Of a DNA stretch of 64,000 bases, positions 3,627 through 45,920 are shown in pieces. The position numbers and the translations under genes were made by a program. Below the pieces are notes generated by a model that made no database searches, was not told the origin of the DNA, and worked only from the letters and a program-made list of their open reading frames with translations. Position 1 is the stretch's first letter, and each line of letters begins with the position of its first letter. The DNA lies in the NCBI RefSeq assembly GCF_937873765.1, contig NZ_CALMZC010000058.1, forward strand, positions 5,713-69,712, read 5' to 3'. This DNA is from an uncultured Thiothrix sp. GTDB lineage: Bacteria > Pseudomonadota > Gammaproteobacteria > Thiotrichales > Thiotrichaceae.

Positions 3627-3675
3627 AGCAGTCTTGCTGTTAAAGTATCTAGCTAAATCTGATCTGGGGTTATTC

Positions 3676-4284
3676 ATGCAAATTACGATTATTAGCGGTA
3701 GTCATCGTCACCATTCTGAAAGCGAAAAAGTCGCTAAGCATGTGCAAACCGTGTTAACTGCACGAGGCATTCATGCTGAGATTTTTAGTTTAGCGGGAAA
3801 TCCTTTGCCTCTTTGGGATGAATCGATTTGGGACAATAATCCAGCATGGAACCAAATTTTAGCACCTTTGTCAGTCCAGCTAGCAGCAAGTGATGCTTTT
3901 GTCATCATCACGCCTGAATGGCATGGACAAGTGCCCGCAGGATTAAAGAATTTTTTCCTACTCTGGGGGCAAAACGAGCTTGCGCATAAGCCAGCATTAA
4001 TTATTGCTGTGTCATCCTCGACGGGTGGGGCTTATCCTGTAGCTGAGCTGAGAATGAGTAGTTATAAAAATAATCGTATTTGCTACCTTCCAGAGCATAT
4101 TATTATACGTCAGGTTACCAACGTGTTGAATGAAGACGCCAGTACCAATGACCCAACAACTGATACTTATTATCGTAAGCGGATTGATTGGGCTTTAGGC
4201 ATTTTAGAGCGTTATGCACAAGCCTTAGCACCTGTTAGAGCAGCAGACGGTTTATTTAATGAAGAATTTCGCAATGGGATGTAA
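3676..4284 (+). CDS. NADPH-dependent FMN reductase family protein
   Basis: MQITIISGSHR start, TPEWHGQVPAGLKN motif. Confidence 0.85.
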   Translation: MQITIISGSHRHHSESEKVAKHVQTVLTARGIHAEIFSLAGNPLPLWDESIWDNNPAWNQILAPLSVQLAASDAFVIITPEWHGQVPAGLKNFFLLWGQNELAHKPALIIAVSSSTGGAYPVAELRMSSYKNNRICYLPEHIIIRQVTNVLNEDASTNDPTTDTYYRKRIDWALGILERYAQALAPVRAADGLFNEEFRNGM

Positions 4285-23835: not shown

Positions 23836-24645
23836 ATGAGTACGGCAACTGATATTTCCCCTATCCAACAACTATTAAACATCATGGCGCAATTACGTGA
23901 CCCAGAGCTTGGCTGCTCTTGGGATCGTAAGCAGACTTGGCAAAGTTTGCTGCCCTATACCTTAGAAGAAACTTATGAAGTAGTCGATGCAGTGGATCGC
24001 AATGATGCACCAGCAGTCTGTGATGAGCTGGGTGATTTGCTGCTACAAGTTGTATTCATGGCACAAATTGCCGAAGAGCAGGGCTTGTTTAATTTTAATG
24101 ATATCGCGCGCGGAATTAGCGAAAAGCTCATTCGTCGTCATCCGCATGTATTTGATAGCACGGTGTATGCATCTGAAGCCGAGCAAAAGCAGGCTTGGGA
24201 AGCGATTAAGCAAGCTGAGCGTGCAGAAAAAGAGCAAAAAGGTTTGTTTGCGGGCATTCCAGCCGCAATGCCCGCTTTACGCCGCGCGCAAAAAGTACAG
24301 AAGCGGGCGGCGCAAGTCGGATTTGATTGGGCGAATTGGCAGCAAGTGGTGCCGAAAGTGCATGAAGAGTTGGATGAGGTTGCAGAAGCCGTCGCTAATA
24401 ACGAATCATTCACTCGCATTGAAGAAGAGATGGGCGATGTACTGCTAGCTGCAAGTAATATGGCGCGTATGCTTGGTGTAGATGCAGAGAATGCACTGCG
24501 CTTATCGAGTCGTAAATTCGAGAAACGCTTTGAGCGAGTAGAAGAGTTACTAGCCCAAGATCAGCTTAGTTTAGAAGCAGCCTCCTTGGCACAAATGGAT
24601 GCGGCTTGGGAGACTGCTAAGCTCGAAGAAAAAACTAAAACTTAA
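23836..24645 (+). CDS. mazG: Nucleoside triphosphate pyrophosphohydrolase MazG
   Basis: LRDPELGCSWD, EETYEV, ELGDLLLQVVF; tandem MazG domains. Confidence 0.95.
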   Translation: MSTATDISPIQQLLNIMAQLRDPELGCSWDRKQTWQSLLPYTLEETYEVVDAVDRNDAPAVCDELGDLLLQVVFMAQIAEEQGLFNFNDIARGISEKLIRRHPHVFDSTVYASEAEQKQAWEAIKQAERAEKEQKGLFAGIPAAMPALRRAQKVQKRAAQVGFDWANWQQVVPKVHEELDEVAEAVANNESFTRIEEEMGDVLLAASNMARMLGVDAENALRLSSRKFEKRFERVEELLAQDQLSLEAASLAQMDAAWETAKLEEKTKT

Positions 24646-25633: not shown

Positions 25634-26404
25634 TTAGCGTAAGGCTAAATTTTCAGAAGGCTGTACAGTTAAGCTCATCACCGACCGCAATTTGTAACGA
25701 TCTCCCGGATGCGTCAGTACTGCAAAGCTAATCAAACGCTCACCTGACCAAGTACGCCGACTGACTTGCAGACAAGGTAAATGTGCGTCCAGTTTCAAAT
25801 AATCTTTGGCATGCTGACTGGGTAAAACGGCTTCGACAATATGCTCCATTGAGCTTAATGCATAGTGTTCGGATAAATATTGATTCGGGGTTTTTTGGGT
25901 AAAATCTTGCTGTAGATAGTGAGGTAAAACACTCGCGGCTAAATAACGCTCTTCGAGTTGAATCGGTAATTGATTCTCCAAATGCACAATCAGCGAATGA
26001 AATACGCGGCTATGCAACGGAATACCCAATTGCATCGCCACAAATTCGGACGCTGCTTGCTCATTCAAGGCTAAGACTTGGCTGGTATATTGATGACCGC
26101 GCTCCCGCACTTCTTCGGCGATATTGCGTACTTCTGCCAAAGGTGATTCGGCTTTCGGTGGAGTAACAAAAGTCCCAAGTCCCGGGTAGCGGATTAACCA
26201 ACCCTCTTGCACCAAATCACGCAAAGCCTTATTCACGGTCATGCGGCTCACACTAAATTGCTCGACTAATTCAGCTTCAGTAGGGATTTTATCGCCCGCT
26301 GCATACTGCTGATTACGAATAGCGTCGCTAATGAATTGCTTGATTTGTTGGTAACGGGGTCGATGGTTCACCCAAAACTCCTGAGAATAATTCTGAGTGA
26401 TCAT
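25634..26404 (-). CDS. hutC: Histidine utilization repressor
   Basis: GntR HTH (VSRMTVNKAL) plus UTRA domain; last gene of the hut operon. Confidence 0.93.
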   Translation of the reverse strand: MITQNYSQEFWVNHRPRYQQIKQFISDAIRNQQYAAGDKIPTEAELVEQFSVSRMTVNKALRDLVQEGWLIRYPGLGTFVTPPKAESPLAEVRNIAEEVRERGHQYTSQVLALNEQAASEFVAMQLGIPLHSRVFHSLIVHLENQLPIQLEERYLAASVLPHYLQQDFTQKTPNQYLSEHYALSSMEHIVEAVLPSQHAKDYLKLDAHLPCLQVSRRTWSGERLISFAVLTHPGDRYKLRSVMSLTVQPSENLALR

Positions 26405-26414
26405 CTTAGCAGTT

Positions 26415-27947
26415 TTATGTACTGGGCAGTAACTCAGGCGGCATATAATGCCTCAAAGCCCCACTACTAACCCATTGCTTGGCGCGTTCAATATCGGGCG
26501 CGAAGTAGCGATCCTTATCATAAAATGCTACTCGCTCGCGTAACTCTGCTTTCGCTGCTTCCAAACGCTCAGTCGTTTTTAAGGGTGCACGAAAATCCAA
26601 GCCTTGTGCTGCAGAAAGCAGTTCAATCGCCACAATCCCACACGTATTATCCGCCATTTCTAGTAAGCGCCGTGCGGCAAAGGTTGCCATCGACACATGG
26701 TCTTCCTGATTCGCAGAAGTGGGCATACTGTCCACTGAAGCGGGATGAGCAAAGGTTTTATTCTCGGAAGCTAAAGCGGCTGCGGTCACTTGCGCAATCA
26801 TAAAGCCGGAATTTACCCCACCATTGTTCACCAAAAACGGTGGCAATTTACTCAAGCTTGAATCAATCAATAAAGCCATGCGCCGCTCCGAAAGTGCACC
26901 AATCTCAGCAATCGCTAAGGCTAAATTATCTGCTGCGAATGCAATGGGTTCGGCATGGAAATTACCGCCGGAGATAAATTCATTTTCCTCTGCAAACACT
27001 AAAGGATTATCCGAAACCGCATTGGCTTCAGTAAGGATGACCTCGGCTGCTTGGCGAATTTGCTGCAAACACGCACCCATCACTTGCGGCTGACAACGTA
27101 GCGAATAAGGATCTTGTACCTTGCCACAGTTTTGATGTGAACTGCCTAGTTCTGAACCAGTACCCAATAAATGTCGATAGGTTGCCGCTACATCGATTTG
27201 GGTTTGATGACCACGCACGGCATGTACACGTGCATCAAAGGGCTTGCGGCTACCGAGTGCTGCTTCGACGGAAAACGCCCCTGCAACCGTTGCTGCTGCG
27301 AATAAGTCTTCCGCCGCAAATAAGCCTTGCAAGGCAAAAGCGGTAGAAGCTTGGGTGCCATTTAACAGGGCTAAACCTTCTTTGGGTGCAAGGGTAAGCG
27401 GGCTTAATTCCGCCTGCTTTAAGCCTTCGGAAGCGTGCAGTCGTTTGCCATCAATCATGACTTCGCCTTCACCTAAGAGCACCGTACTCATATGGGCTAA
27501 CGGGGCTAAATCCCCTGATGCTCCCACTGAACCCTTTTGTGGTACACAAGGATAGACTTGCTTATTGAGCAATTGCATCAAAGACTCAATCACTGCGTAG
27601 CGAATGCCTGAAAAGCCGCGCGCGAGGGAATTGATTTTTAATACTATCATCAAGCGCACGGTGGCTTCTTCCATGAGCGCTCCCGTACCTGCTGCATGCG
27701 AAAGCACAATACTACGTTGCAGCAGCTCTAAATCATGTGGCTCAATGCAGGTATTGGCGAGCAGACCAAAGCCGGTATTAATTCCATACACCACACGATT
27801 TTCGGTAATGACTTTGGCAACCGCTGCCGCACTGGCCTCGATTGCCGCACGGCAACTTGGATCAAGACTTACGTGAACGGGTTGTAAGGCGATTTGGCGT
27901 AGCTCGGCGAGGGTCAACTCCCCCGGCTTAATGACTAATTCAAACAT
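26415..27947 (-). CDS. hutH: Histidine ammonia-lyase
   Basis: [20 protein letters not shown] (MIO motif), [10 protein letters not shown]. Confidence 0.97.
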
Positions 27948-27948
27948 C

Positions 27949-29619
27949 TTAAGCCCCCGACATGGGTAAATCTAAGCCATGCTCACGTGCACAAGTTTGT
28001 GCAAGCTCATAACCTGCATCTGCATGGCGCATCACCCCGGTAGCTGGATCATTGCGTAAGACGCGCGCTAAACGCTTAGTGGCTGCCTCGGTACCATCGG
28101 CAACAATTACCACACCTGCATGTTGGCTAAAGCCCATCCCTACACCCCCACCATGATGCAGGGAGACCCAAGTTGCGCCGCCTGCAGTATTCAACAGGGC
28201 ATTCAATAAAGGCCAATCCGACACCGCATCTGAGCCATCTCGCATACTTTCGGTTTCACGATTGGGGCTAGCCACCGAACCCGAGTCTAAATGATCGCGT
28301 CCGATGACAATGGGTGCTTTCAATTCACCCGATTTGACCATCTCATTAAAGGCTAAACCTAAGCGCGCTCGATCTTTTAAACCCACCCAACAAATACGCG
28401 CGGGTAACCCTTGGAAGGCAATGCGTTCACGCGCCATATCCAGCCACTGATGCAAATGAGCATCGTCTGGAATCAGTTCTTTGACCTTCTGGTCAGTTTT
28501 ATAAATATCTTCGGGATCACCCGACAAAGCAGCCCAACGGAAGGGACCAATACCTTGACAGAACAGGGGGCGAATATAAGCAGGTACGAAACCGGGGAAA
28601 TCAAAAGCGTTTTCTACGCCTTTTTCCAAAGCCATCTGCCGAATATTATTGCCATAATCAGTAGTAGGAGCGCCGCGTTCTTGTAGGGTCAACATGGCAC
28701 GTACTTGAATCGCCATCGACTCTTTCGCTGCATGCACGACCGCATTTGGATCGGTTTCGCGCCTAGCTTTAGCTTGCTCCAAAGTCCAATCTTTGGGTAA
28801 ATAACCATTTAAAGGATCGTGCGCACTCGTTTGATCAGTGACGACATCCGGCAAAATATTCCGGGCGACAATTTCGGGGTAAATATCCGCGCAATTACCT
28901 AAGAGACCTACTGAAATTGCTTGGCCTTCGGCCTTAGCCGTGGCAATCATGTCTAAAGCCTCATCAAGGCTAGAAGCTTTTTTATCCACATAACGGGTGC
29001 GTAGACGAAAGTCGATGCGCGTTTCATCACATTCGACCGCGATACAAGAAAACCCTGCCATCGTTGCCGCTAAAGGTTGAGCACCACCCATGCCGCCTAA
29101 GCCGCCGGTGAGAATCCAACGTCCTCTAGTATCGCCGTGATAATGCTGCTTCGCCATCGCTACGAAGGTTTCATAAGTACCTTGCACAATGCCCTGCGAA
29201 CCAATGTAAATCCATGAGCCAGCGGTCATTTGTCCATACATCATTAGACCTTGCTTATCCAGTTCATTGAAGTGCTCCCAAGTCGCCCAATGGGGTACGA
29301 GATTAGAGTTGGCTAATAACACCCGCGGTGCATCCGCATGGGTTTGGAAGACACCGACGGGTTTTCCGGATTGAATTAATAAGGTTTGGTCGTCTTCAAG
29401 GCGTTTGAGTACTTCGATAATTTTGTCATAGCAAGCCCAATCGCGTGCCGCTCGCCCAATGCCACCGTAGACTACTAAGTCTTCAGGGCGCTCCGCGACA
29501 TCGGGGTGCAGGTTATTCATTAACATGCGCATCGGGGCTTCGGTGAGCCAAGATTTACAGCTTAGGGTTGTACCCGTGGGGGCGATAATGCGACGGTATG
29601 CGTCATGACGCTTATTCAT
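27949..29619 (-). CDS. hutU: Urocanate hydratase
   Basis: [24 protein letters not shown]; start placed at [12 protein letters not shown], overlapping the hutG stop. Confidence 0.97.
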
Positions 29620-30565
29620 GCTGTCCTCCAGTGATGCTATAAAACAGTCGTGCAGCGACACGGGCTGTCTGTAAATCTTGATCGTAGTTAGGGTTATATT
29701 CTGCAATATCGGCGAGGCGCAATTTTTGGCTGGCGCGAATCAATTCAATGACAGGCTCTAACACTTCTAAATTCACCCCTCGTGCGGCTGGTGCGCTCAC
29801 ACCGGGGGCGACACCTGCCGGCAAAACATCCAAATCAATCGTGAGATAAAGGTGATCACAGCCTGCGATGAAGTTTTTCACTTGTAATAAGGTGTCGGCT
29901 GAATCCAGCAAGCTCATCTGCTTATCCAAGCGATAAGACACTTGCCAATTCTGAGCGCGTTGGAATAAAGCTTGAGTATTTGCCATTTCACTCACACCCA
30001 AACAGCAATACTGAAACGGCCAGCCCCGCTTCTTGCAGCTTTGCGCAATTTGATAAAAGGGTGTCCCTGAGTTGCAGCCATTCGCATCCGTGCGAAGATC
30101 AAAATGTGCATCGAAATTGATGATACCGATCTTGGGGGCTGGTGTACGAGCTAAGTGATTGGCTAAACCCAACCAAGACCCATAAGCTACTTCATGTCCA
30201 CCCCCGAGGGTAATCGGGAAATGATTTTGTTCAAGTAGCTGAGTAATTTGGTTAGCAAGATTGATCTGTGCGCTTTCCAAATCGCCTTCTAAACAACACA
30301 CATTACCTGCATCATAAACTACTTGCTTGATACTCCATGGAATACCCGCCAAGAGTTTGCGAATTTGGTTCGGCGCTTGGGCTGCACCGACCCTTCCTTG
30401 ATTACGGCGCACGCCTTCATCCGAGCAAAAGCCAACAATTGCTAAACCGCTGGAGTTCGCCCTAGCAAGCGGTTTGATCAACTGATGCAATCGCTGGGAG
30501 AGTTCAGGAATTTCACCCTGATCAATTCGCCCTGTCCAAATACCCTTAAAATCAAACTCAGACAT
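29612..30565 (-). CDS. hutG: Formimidoylglutamase
   Basis: [38 protein letters not shown] (arginase fold). Confidence 0.93.
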
Positions 30566-31796
30566 AGGTAATCTCTCCTGCAAATACACGCTGTTTAATC
30601 GGATTAATCCCCACTTGATAAGCTAGTTCGGCGGGATGTTGGATATCCCAAACGATAAAATCTGCTGCAAAACCATTGCGTAATTGCCCGATTTGGTTTT
30701 GCAGACCTAAGGCTTGTGCTGCATGGCGAGTCACACCCATTAAGGCTTCCTCTGGTGTTAAGCGAAATAAAGTACAAGCCATGTTCATCGCCAAACGAAT
30801 TGAAGCCAAAGGCGCCGTACCGGGATTAAAGTCCGTTGCTACCGCCATCGGCACTTGATAGCGACGTAATAGCTCAATCGGTGGAACTTTAGTTTCGCGT
30901 AGGAAATAAAATGCAGTGGGCAATAGGGTTGCAACCGTGCCAGACTCCGCCATTGCCGCGACACCGGTTTCATCCAACCATTCCAAATGATCGGCTGACC
31001 ATGCGTGATAGCGTACCGCTAAAGTAGCTGCCTGTTGATTACTCAGTTGTTCGGCGTGGACATGAATGCCTAAACTGTGGGCTTGTGCTGTCTGCAAAAT
31101 ACGCTCGGTTTGTGTAGGGTTAAAGGCAAAATGCTCACAAAATACATCGACTGCATCGGCTAGATGTTCTGCCACAGCCGCAGGAAGCAGTTCTGCACAA
31201 ATCCAATCCACATACGCATCAGCACGATGTTTGTATTCTGGAGGTAAAGCATGTGCACCTAATAAGGTGGTGGATACGCGTACTGGAAAACGCTTGGCTA
31301 ATTCACGTGCTGCCTGCAGCATTTTGAGTTCAGTGCCTAAATCCAAACCATAGCCAGATTTTATTTCAATAGTGGTGATACCTTCGGTAATCAGTGCTTT
31401 TAAGCGTGGAACTGCTAATTCAATCAACTGCTCAACACTGGTATTGCGGGTCGCTCGAACCGTAGAAAGGATACCACCACCTTGTTGGGCGATTTGTTCG
31501 TAACTTGTACCTAATAAGCGCTGTTCAAATTCTTGGGCACGGTTGCCTGCATGGATGAGGTGAGTGTGGCAGTCAATTAGACCGGGGGTGAGGAGAGCAC
31601 CTTGGACGTCGAGGATTTGAGAGTGCGTTAACTGTGAAGATTCTTGTTCAAAGGTCGCCATCGGTGCAATGCAATGAATTACACCTTGGCTAACGCCTAA
31701 AGCTTGGTTAGGTAATAATCCATAGGCTAGCGTTGAGATGGGGTCAAAGCTTGCCAGTTGAACGTTAATCCAAATTTTCTCACAGAGTTGAAACAC
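30558..31796 (-). CDS. hutI: Imidazolonepropionase
   Basis: PGLIDCHTH, EIKSGYGL, HAEQLS and ATDFNPG; GTG start with GAGGAGGAG RBS. Confidence 0.95.
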   Translation of the reverse strand: MFQLCEKIWINVQLASFDPISTLAYGLLPNQALGVSQGVIHCIAPMATFEQESSQLTHSQILDVQGALLTPGLIDCHTHLIHAGNRAQEFEQRLLGTSYEQIAQQGGGILSTVRATRNTSVEQLIELAVPRLKALITEGITTIEIKSGYGLDLGTELKMLQAARELAKRFPVRVSTTLLGAHALPPEYKHRADAYVDWICAELLPAAVAEHLADAVDVFCEHFAFNPTQTERILQTAQAHSLGIHVHAEQLSNQQAATLAVRYHAWSADHLEWLDETGVAAMAESGTVATLLPTAFYFLRETKVPPIELLRRYQVPMAVATDFNPGTAPLASIRLAMNMACTLFRLTPEEALMGVTRHAAQALGLQNQIGQLRNGFAADFIVWDIQHPAELAYQVGINPIKQRVFAGEITYV

Positions 31797-31814: not shown

Positions 31815-31834
31815 TGTATATATATGTATATACG
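31815..31834. promoter_or_regulatory. Probable HutC operator
   Basis: TGTATATATATGTATATACG matches TGTA-N2-TACA-type HutC boxes and lies just upstream of hutI. Confidence 0.65.
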
Positions 31835-31915
31835 TTAACAGCCTGAAAGCAAAAGTCAAGTTACTATCTTGTTTAATAGACTTGAGGATTTTCCTCTATT
31901 AATTCCGCTTATCTG

Positions 31916-31943
31916 AAAAAACAAAACCCCCGGCTAGCGGGGG
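31916..31943 (-). terminator. Intrinsic terminator of the candidate sRNA
   Basis: Minus strand CCCCCG-CTAGC-CGGGGG followed by TTTTGTTTTTT. Confidence 0.85.
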
Positions 31944-32021
31944 CAGAGGTTGCAGGTTTACACCTGTATAATTATTCTTATTGTAGTTCTGATCGAAGTT
32001 CTCAGGACACTCTGTTTTAAA

Positions 32022-32249
32022 TCCCCCCTGCGCTGTTAACACAGGGGGTATCAGGAGTCGAGGCATGGCAGGCTACTTATTTTTATTATGTATTAAGCCT
32101 AACTCGCTACCTCTTAGGGCTTGCTGTTGAACTTCTAACTTCTCCTAAAGTCCCCCCCACTTACGCAGGGGGTATCAGGAGTCGAGGTCTTACAGGCAAC
32201 TTATTTTTGTTGTTGTTTTATGCCTGCTTTCTACCTCTTGGGGCTTGTT
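32022..32249. repeat. Two copies of a ~100-bp module (32022-32125 and 32151-32249)
   Basis: Identical 22-bp core CAGGGGGTATCAGGAGTCGAGG at 32042 and 32166, 124 bp apart, with similar flanks. Confidence 0.9.
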
Positions 32250-32305
32250 GTCTTTATTCCGTTAACCCTTTCTTTTTTTATTCTCGTCCCTTGTGATCTG
32301 TATAC

Positions 32306-32322
32306 TGCAACGGCTGTGCCAA
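32306..32322 (-). promoter_or_regulatory. sigma54 (-24/-12) promoter
   Basis: Minus strand TTGGCAC-AGCCG-TTGCA, a full match to TGGCAC-N5-TTGCA. Confidence 0.85.
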
Positions 32323-32409
32323 CTTGATTGGTAGCGACTTAACTACATGATCTGTAAGGTGTTCAAAGAAATTAAGTTTATTTAATCGACAAAGCTAATC
32401 AGTATGAAA

Positions 32410-32486
32410 CTGTCAAGAAGTGACAGAACTGACAGTAGCAATTGACACAAAACAGCCAGAAGTCGGCTTTGTGTCACTGATTGTCA
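32410..32486. promoter_or_regulatory. Candidate enhancer (UAS) for a sigma54 activator
   Basis: Six TGTCA/TGACA pentamers in 77 bp, including CTGTCA-N5-TGACAG, 115-190 bp upstream of the predicted +1. Confidence 0.6.
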
Positions 32487-32510
32487 GATTATGAGCGGTA
32501 GAAAGGAGCG

Positions 32511-33122
32511 TTAGCTGAGGCTAGAGCGTAAAGCTTGGCGAATCATTTCTTCAACATTGAGATTTTGATTTTCTAAAGGCGCAATCATTTTGCTGGCTTG
32601 AGCAGGTTTATAGCCTAAAGCTAATAACGCATTGAGCGCCTCTTCAACAGGGGAAATAATTGTGAAAGGAGTGTTTGACTGTTTATGGTTGCCTATAAGT
32701 GGCTGGCTAGTATCGACTCTTGGTAAGCGATCACGCATTTCGATAATTAAGCGCTCAGCGGTTTTTTTACCTACGCCCGGAATGCGACTCAGGGCATTGG
32801 CATCGGCTGCATGAATTAGTTGGGCAAATTCAGTGGGAGTCATACCTGAAACGATGGCTAGAGCCATCTTTGGGCCTATGCCTGTGACCTTCAGAAGATG
32901 ACGGAAGAGGGCGCGTTCATCTTGTGAGCTAAAGCCAAATAAGGTTTGAGCATCTTCGCGCACGACGAAATGCGTATAAATTGTCACTTCAGTTTGCTGA
33001 TCAAGCGGCAGATTATAGAAGGTATTCATGGAAGCTTGTAGCTCATAGCCTACACCATGCACTTCAAGTAAAAGTTCGGGAGGCTGCTTATAAATAACTT
33101 TGCCGCGCAATAAGCCGATCAT
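32511..33122 (-). CDS. ruvA: Holliday junction branch migration protein RuvA
   Basis: MIGLLRGK, LLKVTGIGPKMALAI, IPGVGKKTAER. Confidence 0.97.
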   Translation of the reverse strand: MIGLLRGKVIYKQPPELLLEVHGVGYELQASMNTFYNLPLDQQTEVTIYTHFVVREDAQTLFGFSSQDERALFRHLLKVTGIGPKMALAIVSGMTPTEFAQLIHAADANALSRIPGVGKKTAERLIIEMRDRLPRVDTSQPLIGNHKQSNTPFTIISPVEEALNALLALGYKPAQASKMIAPLENQNLNVEEMIRQALRSSLS

Positions 33123-33149
33123 GGTCTTTCCTTTGAATGAAGCGAATCT

Positions 33150-33659
33150 TTAGCGGATCAGGCGCACCGCTTGAGCAATGCGATTATTTAAATGACTGGT
33201 ATGAGCATGGCACAAGGCGACAGCTAAGGCATCCGCAGTGTCCGCTTGTAATTGGCCTTGGAGATTGAGTAAGACTTTTACCATATGCTGCACTTGCGCC
33301 TTATCTGCAGCGCCTTTACCGACGGTTGCTTGTTTAACTTGCTTGGCGCTGTATTCATGCACGGGCAACAGCAAAGTCACCCCCGCACAAATCGCTGCAC
33401 CCCGTGCTTGGCCTAATTTTAATGCGCCACCGGCATTAGTGGCCACGAACACATCTTCCACACTCATTTCATCAGGATGCCAAGCGCGAATGATTTGTGA
33501 GATTTCAGCAAAAATAATCCCCAAACGTTCAGGTAAAGGACGATCACCTAAGCGGATACAGGTACTATAGATATGCTTGATTTTTTGTCCATCGGTCTCA
33601 ATGACACCGATTCCGGTAATCCGAGAACCGGGGTCAATACCGATGATGCGCCGAGTCAT
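33150..33659 (-). CDS. ruvC: Crossover junction endodeoxyribonuclease RuvC
   Basis: IIGIDPGSRITG, ALKLGQARG, DTADALAVALCH. Confidence 0.97.
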   Translation of the reverse strand: MTRRIIGIDPGSRITGIGVIETDGQKIKHIYSTCIRLGDRPLPERLGIIFAEISQIIRAWHPDEMSVEDVFVATNAGGALKLGQARGAAICAGVTLLLPVHEYSAKQVKQATVGKGAADKAQVQHMVKVLLNLQGQLQADTADALAVALCHAHTSHLNNRIAQAVRLIR

Positions 33660-33671
33660 CTTAATTTTCGC

Positions 33672-34430
33672 TTATTCAGCCGTTAAAGCGGTCATTACAG
33701 ATTCTGAAATATCTGCATTGGAATAGACCTCTTGAACATCATCTAAGTCCTCTAAGAGATCAATCATTTTTAACAGCTTCTCGGCGACTTCTAAATCAGT
33801 AATTTCAGTCAAATTATCCGCCCGCATAGTGACTTCAGAGCTATCAGGAGTAAAGCCTGCTTCTACTAAAGCTGTTTGCACGGCTGCGAAATCTTCTGGA
33901 GTAGTGATAACTTCAATAGTGCCATCATCTTCAGTGACGACATCACTCGCACCGGCTTCTAGAGCAGCTTCCATCAGGGCATCTTCATTCACACCCGCAG
34001 CGAAACTCATCACGCCTAGGTTTTTGAACATATAAGCCACTGAACCATTCGTACCTAAGTTACCGCCATTCTTACTAAAGGCATGTCGCACTTCAGCAAC
34101 CGTGCGATTGAGGTTATCGGTTGAAGTTTCCACTAAAACCGCAATCCCACCAGGGCCATAACCTTCATAAGTGACATCGGTATAATTGTCTGCACCTAAT
34201 TCACCAGCCCCGCGTTTGCAGGCTTTTTCAATCGTATCTTTCGGCATATTTGCGCCGAGTGCTTTGGCAACCGCTAAACGTAAACGTGGATAAGCATTCG
34301 GATCAGCGGTTTTGCCTTCACGGGCGGCAACGGTGATTTCCCGAATCAGTTTCGTCCAAACTTTGCCACGTTTTTTATCCACTGCGGCTTTCTGGTGTTT
34401 AATATTTGCCCACTTACTATGGCCAGCCAT
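33672..34430 (-). CDS. yebC: YebC/PmpR family protein
   Basis: [20 protein letters not shown]. Confidence 0.97.
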
Positions 34431-37197: not shown

Positions 37198-37239
37198 TGG
37201 TTATGCTTACAGGGTCGCGTGAGTGTAAGCAGGCTGCTG

Positions 37240-37722
37240 ATGAACAACCCCTACAAGACCCCACAGGCTATCCTTCAGGATTTAAGCTATCAACCTTTAC
37301 CCCCGGCCTTAAAGACTTTGTATTGGCTAATGGGTTTGGCTTTTAGCTGTTCATTTATTTCTACCACGATAGGTTTTGTCAATGTCGTCAAAGCCGCTTC
37401 GTGGATTTTCCTTTTACCTTGGACGCAGCAATTGATGCTGTTAGGCTTAGCCGGTTCTGGGTATGCCTTATTATTCGCTTTCTATTACTTTTTAGTGTTT
37501 CGACCTTTGCAATTACGTAGGCGCACGACTAGCCGCTGGTGGTTGATTGCAGTTTTGATTTTAGCGCTTTTGTGGTTATGGTTTGTGCTACTGCCTGATG
37601 ATAATCCGCAGGTAGTAAGCTCTATGGTTGATGTAAGCTTAGCCGCTGCAGAAATTGGTTTATTGATACTCGGTGGTTTATTAGCAGCTCGACCGGCTGC
37701 TTTAGAGCATTTAACGAACTAG
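37240..37722 (+). CDS. Hypothetical 4-TM membrane protein, paralog 1
   Basis: 160 aa; NPYxxP start; aligns without gaps to the next ORF. Confidence 0.75.
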   Translation: MNNPYKTPQAILQDLSYQPLPPALKTLYWLMGLAFSCSFISTTIGFVNVVKAASWIFLLPWTQQLMLLGLAGSGYALLFAFYYFLVFRPLQLRRRTTSRWWLIAVLILALLWLWFVLLPDDNPQVVSSMVDVSLAAAEIGLLILGGLLAARPAALEHLTN

Positions 37723-37783
37723 TGATGTCGTGTACTTGAGTAATGGGCTATGCTTGATTAATCACTTAGCATAATTGATCAGC

Positions 37784-38266
37784 ATGAATAGTCTCTATGA
37801 ACCCCCGCGCTCTAAAGTTAAAGACTTAAATTACCGGCCATTGCCCTATTCTTTAAAACTACTGTACGGATTGATGAGCTTAGCTGTGCTATATTCCGTC
37901 TTGTTTACAACAATTAGCTTTATTGTAACCCTACAAAAAGAGCCTTGGATTCTAAGCTTATCGTGGGATGGTCTGTTCCTTTTTATAATAGCTCTTCTTG
38001 CATCTTATAGTTTCATTTTTGTTTTTTACTATTTTTTAGTATTTCGTCCTTTATATAAGCGCCGACGATCAACATACAAATGGTGGTTAAGTGCACTGTT
38101 AATCTTGTTAGGGCTTTGGATAGTTGTTTTATTATTCACTGCTGGGGTTAGTTCTGAAAAAGGCTTATTAATACAAAAGATATTAAGTGGTTTAGAGCCG
38201 ATATTTTTAGGCTTAGGCGTTATTCTTGCTGCTCGCCCGACTACTTTAGCGAATTTACCGAATTAA
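37784..38266 (+). CDS. Hypothetical 4-TM membrane protein, paralog 2
   Basis: 160 aa; shares FYYFLVFRPLxxRRRxTxxWWL and LAARP with paralog 1. Confidence 0.75.
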   Translation: MNSLYEPPRSKVKDLNYRPLPYSLKLLYGLMSLAVLYSVLFTTISFIVTLQKEPWILSLSWDGLFLFIIALLASYSFIFVFYYFLVFRPLYKRRRSTYKWWLSALLILLGLWIVVLLFTAGVSSEKGLLIQKILSGLEPIFLGLGVILAARPTTLANLPN

Positions 38267-41734: not shown

Positions 41735-41808
41735 GCGGGTGTAGTTCAATGGTAGAACGGCAGCTTCCCAAGCTTCATACGAGGGTTCGATTCCCTTCAC
41801 CCGCTCCA
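41735..41808 (+). tRNA. tRNA-Gly (CCC)
   Basis: GCGGGTG acceptor stem, TT-CCC-AA anticodon loop, GGTTCGATTCC T-arm, encoded CCA. Confidence 0.96.
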
Positions 41809-43135: not shown

Positions 43136-43909
43136 CTAAAAGCGCAAGTGCTTAACTGACAGGCCGTTATTAATCAATTCGTTGAGTGAGTCGATACCAA
43201 TACGTAAATGCTGCTCAACAAAATCGGCACTTACTTTTTTATCGCTGGCTTCAGTTTTAACACCTTCGGGTTCCATTGGGCGATCTGAAACTAGCAATAA
43301 AGCCCCAACAGGAATTTCATTGAAGAATCCAGCACTAAAAATAGTCGCGGTTTCCATATCAATCGCCATACAGCGGATACTTTTTAAATAGGCTTTGAAA
43401 GTATCGTCATGTTCCCAAACGCGGCGATTCGTGGTGTACACCGTTCCTGTCCAATATTCGCGTTGGTATTTGCGCGAAATGGTGGTGGAAACGGCTTTTT
43501 GCAAACTAAACGCCGGTAAGGCGGGTACTTCGCTTGGGAAGTAATCGCTAGAAGTACCTTCACCGCGAATCGCAGCAATCGGCAGGATTAAATCACCGAG
43601 CTGATTCTTCTTTTTTAGGCCGCCACATTTGCCTAAGAACAGTACTGCTTTAGGGTGTACCGCACTTAATAAATCCAGAATCGTGGCTGCATTGGGGCTA
43701 CCCATGCCAAAATTAATAATCGTAATATTATTCGCGGTCGCATTCGGCATACTGCGGTCAGCCCCAAGCATGGGCACATTATGCCAGCGAGCAAAAATTT
43801 CCACGTATTGATTGAAATTGACCAACAGAATATATTGCCCAATGCTTTCTGGAGTTAAGCCGGTATAGCGAGGTAGCCAATTAGCCACAATCTCTTGTTT
43901 AGTGCGCAT
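43136..43909 (-). CDS. amn: AMP nucleosidase, short form
   Basis: NWLPRYTG, NFGMGSPNAAT, FLGKCGGL, IDMETAT, LLLVSD. Confidence 0.9.
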   Translation of the reverse strand: MRTKQEIVANWLPRYTGLTPESIGQYILLVNFNQYVEIFARWHNVPMLGADRSMPNATANNITIINFGMGSPNAATILDLLSAVHPKAVLFLGKCGGLKKKNQLGDLILPIAAIRGEGTSSDYFPSEVPALPAFSLQKAVSTTISRKYQREYWTGTVYTTNRRVWEHDDTFKAYLKSIRCMAIDMETATIFSAGFFNEIPVGALLLVSDRPMEPEGVKTEASDKKVSADFVEQHLRIGIDSLNELINNGLSVKHLRF

Positions 43910-44027
43910 ACGATGTTCGTCCTTATTGTTATTAGCGGAACCTGTCTGTGATGCAGGCTTTTAAATAGAGGAAGGAGATAATAATCTTCTTAGAAAGTTC
44001 CTATCTTTCTAGCCTCAAAGTCTAAAT

Positions 44028-45219: not shown

Positions 45220-45840
45220 TTATATTTCTAGCGGGTCAGCTAATCCGTATATTTTACAAAGACAATTGTTTTTTATGATAATTGGAGCTTGATAGTTAGA
45301 CCTCCCTATAAGATGCATACCCCCATCAATCAAGTCAGCCCAAGGCATTTTGGAGTGATAAGCATTATGCATGATAGAGAACTCTATTCTTTCGCGTTTT
45401 CTCTTTTCAACTACAGAAGCTATAAAAAGCCGATAAGCATTAAGTTCTTTATGAATAGCACTAACAAGATAGTCTTTATTCTCATAGAATAACTGCATAT
45501 TTTCTCTAGCATAGCTCCACCCATGCCAAAGTTCTTGGCGAATGCCTTGTTTTGCGAGGTCAATATCAAGAATAGTATAAGACCCATTCATATATGCACG
45601 CGTATGCTGGTAAATACGTTTTTTTGTTGAGCTAGTTACACCAACAGAACGCAAAATATAACCATCTCGGTATTCAAATGTTAGCAAGTAAACGCCTGCA
45701 ATATCTGGAAGAGACGGTAGTCGATTCACCTGTTCGTATTTAGGCCAAGAAAACGGGCCTGACCATTGAAGCTCTTCAGTCAAAATTAGTTCGCTATCTC
45801 TGGAGCGATTAAAGCTCCAGAATTTGGGTAAATCTTGCAT
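45220..45840 (-). CDS. Hypothetical protein, possible divergent GIY-YIG nuclease
   Basis: PDIAGVYLL...RSVGVTSSTKKRIYQH...RERIE; AT-rich relative to neighbours. Confidence 0.5.
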   Translation of the reverse strand: MQDLPKFWSFNRSRDSELILTEELQWSGPFSWPKYEQVNRLPSLPDIAGVYLLTFEYRDGYILRSVGVTSSTKKRIYQHTRAYMNGSYTILDIDLAKQGIRQELWHGWSYARENMQLFYENKDYLVSAIHKELNAYRLFIASVVEKRKRERIEFSIMHNAYHSKMPWADLIDGGMHLIGRSNYQAPIIIKNNCLCKIYGLADPLEI

Positions 45841-45920
45841 GTTTATAAATAAGAATTTACTGCTAGACCTAAATCTTACCCCCCATCACCTGCATTAAGA
45901 ATGGAGGGTAAGAAGTAGTT

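Follow-up and report, generated by a model that had tools for sequence, protein, structure and literature searches.

A family of structured, A-rich RNAs with a sigma-54-type promoter downstream of ruvA in Thiolinea and Thiothrix, proposed as an Hfq decoy

A new RNA family, of a known regulatory kind and with a new architecture, is encoded downstream of ruvA in Thiolinea and Thiothrix; we describe it here from its member in the 64-kb window (the whole stretch of 64,000 nucleotides that was analysed, from contig NZ_CALMZC010000058.1 of an uncultured Thiothrix sp.). The RNA gene combines a sigma-54-type promoter, an upstream array of putative activator half-sites, tandem three-helix modules, A-rich tracts that are predicted to be unpaired and an intrinsic terminator. 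We propose, with about even confidence, that it specifies an activator-controlled, trans-acting non-coding RNA of Thiolinea and Thiothrix that would bind the distal face of Hfq as a decoy, as an analogue of CrcZ. Dependence on sigma-54 and on an enhancer-binding protein (EBP), binding to Hfq and the decoy role are predictions from the sequence. The transcript, its promoter and its internal elements in the window are as follows.

31916-32295, minus strand: predicted primary transcript (about 380 nt), which runs from +1 through the U-tract.
32306-32322, minus strand: sigma-54-type promoter TTGGCAC-N5-TTGCA, TTGGCACAGCCGTTGCA, with GG at -24 and GC at -12.
32270-32282, 32201-32217, 32077-32087 and 31972-31982, minus strand: four AANAANAA tracts.
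32269-32283, minus strand: A-rich tract of the 5' leader, AAUAAAAAAAGAAAG, (A-R-N)x5, predicted unpaired and with an equivalent in all homologues.
32244-32258, minus strand: second, weaker A-rich stretch, AAUAAAGACAACAAG, in a loop flanked by GGGUU and AGCCC.
32141-32248, minus strand: module 1, with CAAGCCCC, P1 (GAGGUA/GACCUC), P2 (GCAGGCA/UGCCUGU), a 22-nt A-rich loop, the linker CUCGACUCCUGAU and P3.
32199-32220, minus strand: apical loop of module 1, UAAAACAACAACAAAAAUAAGU, (A-A-N)x6.
32174-32186 (module 1) and 32050-32062 (second copy), minus strand: near-invariant 13-nt linker CUCGACUCCUGAU.
32012-32124, minus strand: module 2, with the architecture of module 1 and UAGGCU/AGCCUG as P2.
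32075-32095, minus strand: apical loop of module 2, UAAUACAUAAUAAAAAUAAGU, (A-A-N)x4.
31972-31983, minus strand: 3' A-rich tract, AAUAAGAAUAAU, (A-R-N)x4.
31953-31966, minus strand: small hairpin CAGGUGUAAACCUG just 5' of the terminator, kept in the eikelboomii-like clade.
31916-31944, minus strand: intrinsic terminator, a GC hairpin and a U-tract, GCCCCCGCTAGCCGGGGG then TTTTGTTTTTT (GCCCCCGCUAGCCGGGGG then UUUUGUUUUUU).

Homologues, searched for in loci near ruvA, were recovered after this gene in the following genomes and contigs.

Thiolinea-type: T. eikelboomii (L002, L013), T. disciformis (L004) and Thiolinea sp. (L006, L017).
Further homologues: species known from metagenome-assembled genomes (MAGs; L011, L012, L014, L015) and metagenome contigs (L092-L094).
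Thiothrix: T. nivea (L008) and T. lacustris (L095), together with MAG GCA_002747435 (L009).

The family spans at least eight Thiolinea-type lineages, two Thiothrix species and one MAG, and the gene order yebC-ruvC-ruvA-RNA is constant among the homologous loci that carry the RNA. Every module of these loci is recovered by the module covariance model (R1) with 71-115 bits, among them module 1 (109.3 bits) and module 2 (96.1 bits) of the window. At E <= 1 and within 2.5 kb of ruvA, the same model returned only a 15-bit fragment, in a Cocleimonas MAG (L042), from 73 other loci of Leucothrix, Cocleimonas, other Thiotrichaceae MAGs, Methylococcales and others. Compared across the window and three related species, the RNA reaches 93-96% identity, as against 78-84% for ruvA DNA, 75-78% for hutI and 64-73% for the spacers on either side, and the block of high identity starts at the predicted +1 and stops at the U-tract. 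The RNA is under strong purifying selection. In keeping with the first-pass annotation, which called it unannotated, no Rfam family claims the RNA at the gathering or at a permissive threshold, either in the window or in six homologous loci; on comparative grounds, this is a real RNA family outside Rfam.

The predicted fold of the transcript has an energy of -119.5 kcal/mol (z = -5.4 against shuffles). Its body contains a 124-nt internal direct repeat, overlooked in the first-pass annotation, which corresponds to two tandem modules whose cores are 76% identical over 89 nt. Across the family the body is built from modules of about 107 nt, a single one in Thiothrix, a pair in most Thiolinea and three in L009, and the family evolves through gain and decay of modules. 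Each module comprises, in order, the block CAAGCCCY, helix P1 (GAGGUA/UACCUC), helix P2 (GCAGGC/GCCUGC) with a loop of about 20-25 nt, the linker CUCGACUCCUGAU and P3, a C-rich/G-rich hairpin; module 2 is identical or near-identical among five species-level relatives. In a 17-row alignment that mixes orthologous and paralogous modules, some of them from the same RNAs, 94.6% of the cells of the three helices are paired and 14 of the 20 pairs are changed on both sides. This covariation score is reached by none of 500 shuffles, and sliding the 3' partners by 1-3 columns leaves 39-51% pairing. The RNA is a structured non-coding RNA with covarying helices. The linker of module 1 is predicted to be partly paired with the downstream UUUAGGAG, forming a lower stem beneath P3, and no counterpart of UUUAGGAG occurs downstream in module 2; the linker may have a structural role, contact a protein or act as a base-pairing seed.

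Three observations on individual copies belong here. L015 holds, at 3695-3768, a degenerate third unit (27 bits) in which the linker and P3 are kept and the A-rich hairpin is lost, and L017 has, at 3660-3870, an extension of about 200 nt with two extra AAN tracts before the terminator. In the window itself, a weak match to the module model (20.7 bits, E of about 0.016) lies at 45810-45920 on the plus strand, in a gap between two minus-strand genes; a second copy was rejected there as a chance match, with no AAN loop and an overlap with a gene start.

The claim that the transcript is ORF-free needs qualification. A 55-aa open reading frame (ORF) with an ATG start (31899-32066, minus strand) and a 35-aa ORF on the plus strand are present in the region, but no ORF is conserved, and a coding reading was rejected because the 55-aa frame is frameshifted in relatives whose RNA is 93-96% identical.

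The four A-rich tracts lie where the first-pass annotation had placed them, and they are far more frequent than dinucleotide composition predicts. The window RNA holds 10 overlapping AANAANAA matches against an expectation of 1.2 +/- 1.3, a count reached by none of 300 dinucleotide-preserving shuffles, and the background of the window is 0.5-0.8 AANAANAA tracts per kb. The 13 homologues (283-514 nt) carry 4-6 AANAANAA tracts each, or 3-7 (A-R-N) runs of at least four triplets, with 9-19 overlapping AANAANAA matches against 0.4-2.4 in dinucleotide-preserving shuffles; the enrichment is 7-25-fold in all 13 (0 of 300 shuffles each). The tracts have a predicted unpaired probability of 0.71-0.92, compared with 0.38-0.47 for the rest of the RNA. 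In the alignment, the P2 loop has A with little or no exception at columns 38,39/41,42/44,45/47,48 while the third positions vary, which gives an (A-A-N)x4 register; this AA-N periodicity is the one expected from the A-R-N pockets on the distal face of Hfq (PMC4063720). Outside the P2 loop, AAN runs also occur in the 5' leader, ahead of the terminator and in the loop that precedes module 1. Other homologues have a longer 3' A-rich tract (AAUAAUAACAAUAAACAAUAAUAAUAA in L015, for example), and T. disciformis has, in the region of the second A-rich stretch, a 41-nt insertion made up almost entirely of AAN repeats. The description of the RNA as CrcZ-like is therefore strengthened by AAN motifs that show three-base periodicity in predicted unpaired loops, and it stands for these motifs and for the promoter class; it does not extend to the Rfam score, the upstream half-sites or the locus. 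Elsewhere in the window, AAUAACAAUAAGGA (43909-43940, minus strand) lies directly 5' of the start codon of a PNP_UDP_1 phosphorylase-superfamily ORF (43136-43909) and resembles the A-rich sites overlapping ribosome-binding sites that are repressed by Hfq/Crc in Pseudomonas; it is a candidate target, and anecdotal.

The promoter at 32306-32322 is the sole match to TGGCAC-N5-TTGCW in the 64 kb, even with one mismatch permitted. With one mismatch, 3.8 matches are expected by chance, and a single site is unremarkable by itself. Its position, however, is shared: TGGCA[CT]-N5-[TCA]TGC[AT] occurs about 200 nt past the ruvA stop codon in every homologue. The predicted +1 near 32295 derives from the promoter geometry, and both this start and the consensus promoter had been recognised in the first-pass annotation, as had the terminator, whose GC hairpin and U-tract have an equivalent closing every homologue. 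Upstream of the promoter lie three further elements; the cluster of half-sites among them, like the stability of the fold, had escaped the first-pass annotation.

32411-32447, minus strand: proximal upstream activating sequence TGTCA-N8-TGTCA-N4-TGTCA-N5-TGACA, ending in the palindrome CTGTCActtctTGACAG, a candidate binding site of an EBP.
32472-32486, minus strand: distal half-sites, a pair of TGACA pentamers located at -165 and -155 relative to the promoter TGGCA.
32340-32351, minus strand: site resembling that of integration host factor (IHF), ATCATGTAGTTA, between the upstream array and the promoter, a consensus match only.

Measured from TGGCA, the array comprises TGTCA at -126, -113 and -104 and TGACA at -94, -155 and -165. 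The geometry of its proximal part is the same to within one base in the window, L013, L011, L012, T. nivea and the MAG L009. The distal TGACA offsets are equal in the window, L013 and L011, deviate by one base in L012 and lie near -170/-169 and -156 in T. nivea and L009. Taken over these six loci, offsets are held within 1-2 bases in the proximal part and shift by at most 5 in the distal part, and this conservation covers the deepest splits of the homologue set. The core palindrome TGTCA-N5-TGACA is found in 9 of 10 homologues. Six TGTCA/TGACA pentamers per 100 nt are unique within the window, where 0.15 per 100 nt are expected. The array fits none of the patterns of NtrC, GlrR (TGTC-N10-GACA), NifA (TGT-N10-ACA) or CbrB (TGTTAC/GTAACA). 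A relaxed IHF pattern is located at -29/-30 from TGGCA in 5 of 10 homologues (window, L013, L011, L012 and L015) and at -40 in L017, and the strict pattern WATCAANNNNTTR at -31 in L013 and L012 and at -41 in L017. By these predicted elements, the upstream region has the anatomy of an activator-dependent sigma-54 promoter. A search of the metagenome collection with the exact array pattern for other promoters of the same regulon returned only copies of the RNA's own promoter (4 of 4 matches).

The distal half-sites overlap the hairpin that follows the ruvA stop codon. A long imperfect palindrome at 32426-32490, directly after this stop codon, joins a terminator-like hairpin (32454-32468) with the distal TGACA/TGTCA half-sites, and gives spurious low-score matches to microRNA and IS128 families of Rfam. 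Termination of ruvA and activator binding may overlap in this segment.

Based on these elements, we propose the following hypothetical mechanism, in which (i) transcription would start at the sigma-54 promoter with the help of an ATP-dependent EBP, presumably bound to the TGTCA/TGACA array 90-170 bp upstream and perhaps assisted by IHF; (ii) the RNA would be produced only once a signal activates the EBP; (iii) with its one to three structured modules, A-rich leader and A-rich tail, it would expose 3-7 unpaired (A-A-N)n tracts (n of 4-6), the sequence bound by the distal face of the Hfq hexamer; (iv) it would bind several Hfq hexamers as a decoy; and (v) Hfq would be drawn off A-rich sites near the ribosome-binding sites of target mRNAs, lifting translational repression by the logic of CrcZ. 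Step (ii) follows from the requirement of a sigma-54 promoter for an EBP, and the combination of this promoter with a dedicated array likewise points to signal-dependent production. The differing number of modules and tracts between lineages points to selection on valency, as for other titrating RNAs. More broadly, and with somewhat less confidence, we suggest that Hfq titration may form a global circuit in Thiothrix and Thiolinea, one that arose independently of the CbrAB-CrcZ-Hfq/Crc circuit of Pseudomonas or shares an ancient origin with it, and in which a sigma-54 activator acting on TGTCA-N5-TGACA would sense a nutritional signal and decoy valency would be tuned in each lineage.

Several observations weigh against the decoy proposal. 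The AAN tracts and the U-rich terminator also fit a base-pairing small RNA (sRNA) that merely uses the Hfq distal face, and the two near-invariant blocks of each module (CAAGCCCY and CUCGACUCCUGAU) are not needed by a decoy. A motif search of the 64-kb window gave no GAFTGA-type activator, Hfq or RpoN signature, and none of crc, cbrAB, hfq and rpoN; there is no copy of the RNA next to ruvA in T. caldifontis (L096) or in the Thiolinea-like contig L010. Public data add a further reservation. Part of the sequence is contained in at least 18 runs from wastewater, bioreactors or sediment that have metatranscriptome or RNA-Seq libraries, and some of their contigs lie wholly inside the RNA or stop exactly at the U-tract (X26, X32, X33 and X41, the library type of X41 being unrecorded): X26 spans 31982-32262, X33 ends at 31915 and X41 is 394 nt long, covering 31916-32308. 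However, the ends of the RNA-only contigs match the limits of sequence conservation, so that these contigs may reflect assembly of the conserved part alone, and at 80% likeness the flanking genes show equal or higher depth than the RNA. Contigs X31, X25 and X33 join ruvA to the RNA or include promoter bases. Because of these coinciding ends, the deep flanking genes and the included promoter bases, we rejected the RNA-confined contigs as proof of a discrete or abundant transcript and do not count them as such.

The neighbourhood of the gene bears on the question of what the RNA serves. In the window, yebC, ruvC and ruvA lie upstream of it and hutI, hutG, hutU, hutH and hutC downstream. The relevant features of this spacer are two.

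32511 (ruvA stop codon) to 31796 (hutI start codon), minus strand: spacer that bears the RNA gene.
31816-31859, minus strand: -35-like TTGACT and an operator-like AT palindrome, GTATATACATATATATAC, between the RNA terminator and hutI.

Among the homologous loci compared, hutI is the downstream neighbour in the eikelboomii-like clade only. A convergent mazG follows the RNA in T. disciformis, Thiolinea sp., L014, L015, T. nivea and T. lacustris, and type II secretion genes follow it in L009. The mazG gene of the window (23836-24645) is located past the hut block (25634-31796), whereas in other lineages it stands directly after the RNA, which suggests that the hut block was inserted in the eikelboomii-like clade; the adjacency of hut to the RNA is therefore incidental. 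The palindrome GTATATACATATATATAC is kept in L011, L012, L013 and L092-L094, and the position of this palindrome and of TTGACT after the RNA terminator suggests that they are a putative hut promoter and HutC-type operator, giving hut its own control. With a variable downstream neighbour and these promoter-like and operator-like elements of hut, we rejected a role as a hut leader or a link to a catabolic operon, the placement that the first-pass annotation had noted. Thiolinea and Thiothrix have ruvA without ruvB after it; the RNA gene takes the slot after ruvA, and yebC-ruvC-ruvA is intact (32511-34430 in the window, and the ruvA loci).

The RuvA protein of the window shares 91% identity with its counterpart in a 'Thiothrix sp.' MAG, 89% with those of 'Thiolinea sp.' MAGs and 84% with that of Thiothrix eikelboomii, and the DNA runs that contain the window stretch are mainly from activated sludge and wastewater; judged by these identities and runs, the source of the window is a Thiolinea-type member of the order Thiotrichales. 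Two further features of the window are a tRNA gene (41735-41805, plus strand, 67 bits), which is its sole Rfam match at the gathering score and whose anticodon loop reads CCC, probably tRNA-Gly, and a tandem pair of paralogous genes (37219-37722 and 37775-38266, plus strand) whose products, small membrane proteins of about 165 aa, share motifs such as FYYFLVFRPL..RRR.T..WW.

The main rival to an Hfq decoy, which we judge unlikely, is an Hfq-dependent base-pairing sRNA in which the AAN tracts and the U-tail would be anchors and CUCGACUCCUGAU, with its anti-Shine-Dalgarno-like CUCCU, would be the seed for the ribosome-binding sites of targets. The 13-nt block is indeed near-invariant across genera and modules while the adjacent helices covary, repeated identical seeds are known from modular sRNAs such as the sigma-54-dependent NrsZ, and the terminator U-tract is compatible with binding to the Hfq proximal face. 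However, folding predicts that most of the module 1 block pairs with UUUAGGAG, downstream of P3; apart from the RNA's own gene, no site complementary to CUCGACUCCUGAU occurs in the 64-kb window; and 3-7 long AAN tracts, the number of which expands between lineages, far exceed what anchoring needs. Both near-invariant blocks, together with the modular repeats, also suggest sequence-specific protein contacts, as in a decoy for another RNA-binding protein (CsrA/RsmA, ProQ or an unknown protein recognising CAAGCCCY or CUCGACUCCUGAU); we give this reading little credence. Conservation does extend to a few A(N)GGA sites, such as the 5'-end ACAAGGGA and ACGGA, but in nearly every homologue GGA (4-10 per RNA) and ANGGA are no more frequent than shuffles predict, and the hairpin loops bear AAN instead of GGA. 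Csr/Rsm RNAs are moreover GacA/UvrY-dependent, unlike the sigma-54-type promoter here. The reading as a CsrA sponge was rejected since GGA is not enriched.

That there is no independent RNA gene, and that the sequence is a 3' untranslated region or read-through of ruvA, a hut leader or a small-protein gene, is very improbable. The contigs that join ruvA to the RNA or hold promoter bases and the 55-aa ORF would fit such an origin, but the RNA has its own conserved sigma-54-type promoter with an upstream array and its own terminator, the downstream gene is unconserved and often convergent, hut appears to have its own -35-like hexamer and palindrome, and the ORF is frameshifted in close relatives. 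Rather improbable, too, is a true, highly diverged CrcZ orthologue with a CbrB-like activator and Crc, which would make the circuit older and wider than the Pseudomonadaceae. The promoter class is shared, length is similar and the A-rich motifs agree in type and number (PMC4063720); a single base separates TGTCAC from the CbrB subsite TGTTAC, and both systems have at least three subsites and an IHF-assisted promoter, in the present case a predicted one. Against this, the CrcZ model of Rfam (RF01675) reaches best local scores of only 12.7 and 10.5 bits, compared with a gathering score of 95; these are noise-level matches confined to A-rich stretches, and there is no match in six homologues. In addition, the locus is linked to ruvA and not to cbrB, TGTTAC/GTAACA is absent from the upstream region of the window and present as single matches in 2 of 10 homologues (L012 and L015), the core is palindromic while CbrB sites are described as non-palindromic, and reviews confine CbrAB to Pseudomonas and Azotobacter (PMC8871633). 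By Rfam score, upstream half-sites and locus, the RNA is not a member of the CrcZ family. We favour the Hfq decoy on account of the A-A-N register, the length, unpaired state and multiplicity of the tracts, and the promoter array.

Thiothrix and Thiolinea, which comprise Eikelboom type 021N and its relatives, are filamentous, sulfur-oxidising mixotrophs behind sludge bulking. Regulation in these bacteria is essentially unstudied, and the RNA offers an entry point to the substrate preference of organisms that cause bulking in wastewater plants. A sigma-54-driven, A-rich, Hfq-titrating RNA is textbook knowledge for Pseudomonas, and CbrAB/CrcZ has been described and reported as exclusive to Pseudomonas and Azotobacter (PMC6296734, PMC8871633); in agreement with the first-pass annotation, which knew of no description in this lineage, no paper in the literature searched links CrcZ, Hfq regulation or small RNAs with Thiothrix. 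If the decoy proposal is true, another gammaproteobacterial order would use an RNA that is structurally unrelated to CrcZ but matches it in promoter class and motif logic, the strategy would be more general than thought, and the two RNAs would offer a natural case of convergence or deep divergence. Should the wider circuit exist, 'reverse' catabolite control through an Hfq decoy RNA would extend beyond pseudomonads and would have evolved a new RNA architecture there. The conserved upstream array can serve as a defined bait to find the cognate activator and its signal, and the module alignment as a seed for a new RNA family model.

Compared with known systems, the RNA resembles CrcZ, CrcY and CrcX in its sigma-54-type promoter, multi-subsite upstream array, IHF-like site and intrinsic terminator (PMC6296734), and in the predicted titration of Hfq via its distal face. 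Its length of 283-514 nt compares with 407 nt for CrcZ, and its 3-7 unpaired (A-R-N) runs of at least four triplets with the six such runs of CrcZ (PMC4063720). In contrast, there is no detectable homology in sequence or structure, and the RNA here consists of tandem three-helix modules of about 107 nt. Its half-sites are TGTCA/TGACA, including the palindrome TGTCA-N5-TGACA, whereas the CbrB subsites of CrcZ, TGTTAC/GTAACA, are non-palindromic and 12-16 nt apart (PMC6296734). The gene follows ruvA, while crcZ lies directly downstream of cbrB in the order cbrA-cbrB-crcZ (PMC8871633), and the host order Thiotrichales is without described CbrAB or Crc. The sole hint that we found of a CrcZ-like RNA outside Pseudomonas and Azotobacter is sRNA99 of Acinetobacter baumannii, which its authors liken to CrcZ for its AAN motifs and its Hfq behaviour in RIL-seq (RNA interaction by ligation and sequencing) (PMC12802169). 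The passage on it describes three putative AAN motifs and an experimental Hfq association and mentions neither a sigma-54 promoter nor a modular structure (PMC12802169), whereas the RNA here has more tracts and strong comparative support.

Other regulatory RNAs share single aspects of this design. With NrsZ, the RNA has in common the sigma-54-type promoter and tandem repeated stem-loop modules. NrsZ of Pseudomonas aeruginosa is sigma-54/NtrC-dependent and consists of short tandem stem-loop modules that are processed into units and base-pair on rhlA; the NtrC site GCAC-N5-9-GTGC is found in none of the ten upstream regions considered here, and TGCACC/GGTGCA once only (L012, -18). GlmY of Enterobacteria depends on sigma-54 with GlrR, is a decoy for RapZ and is neither modular nor provided with AAN tracts. 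It resembles the present RNA as a sigma-54-dependent sRNA that acts by mimicry or titration (proposed here) and has multiple half-sites of the TGTC/GACA type, but GlrR sites are TGTC-N10-GACA and the spacing here is N7. The RNA resembles CsrB and RsmX/Y/Z in its multivalency, with one short motif displayed in many hairpin loops and a repeat number that varies between lineages; in these RNAs the motif is GGA and the promoter a GacA/UvrY-activated sigma-70 one, whereas here the motif is AAN and the promoter of the sigma-54 type.

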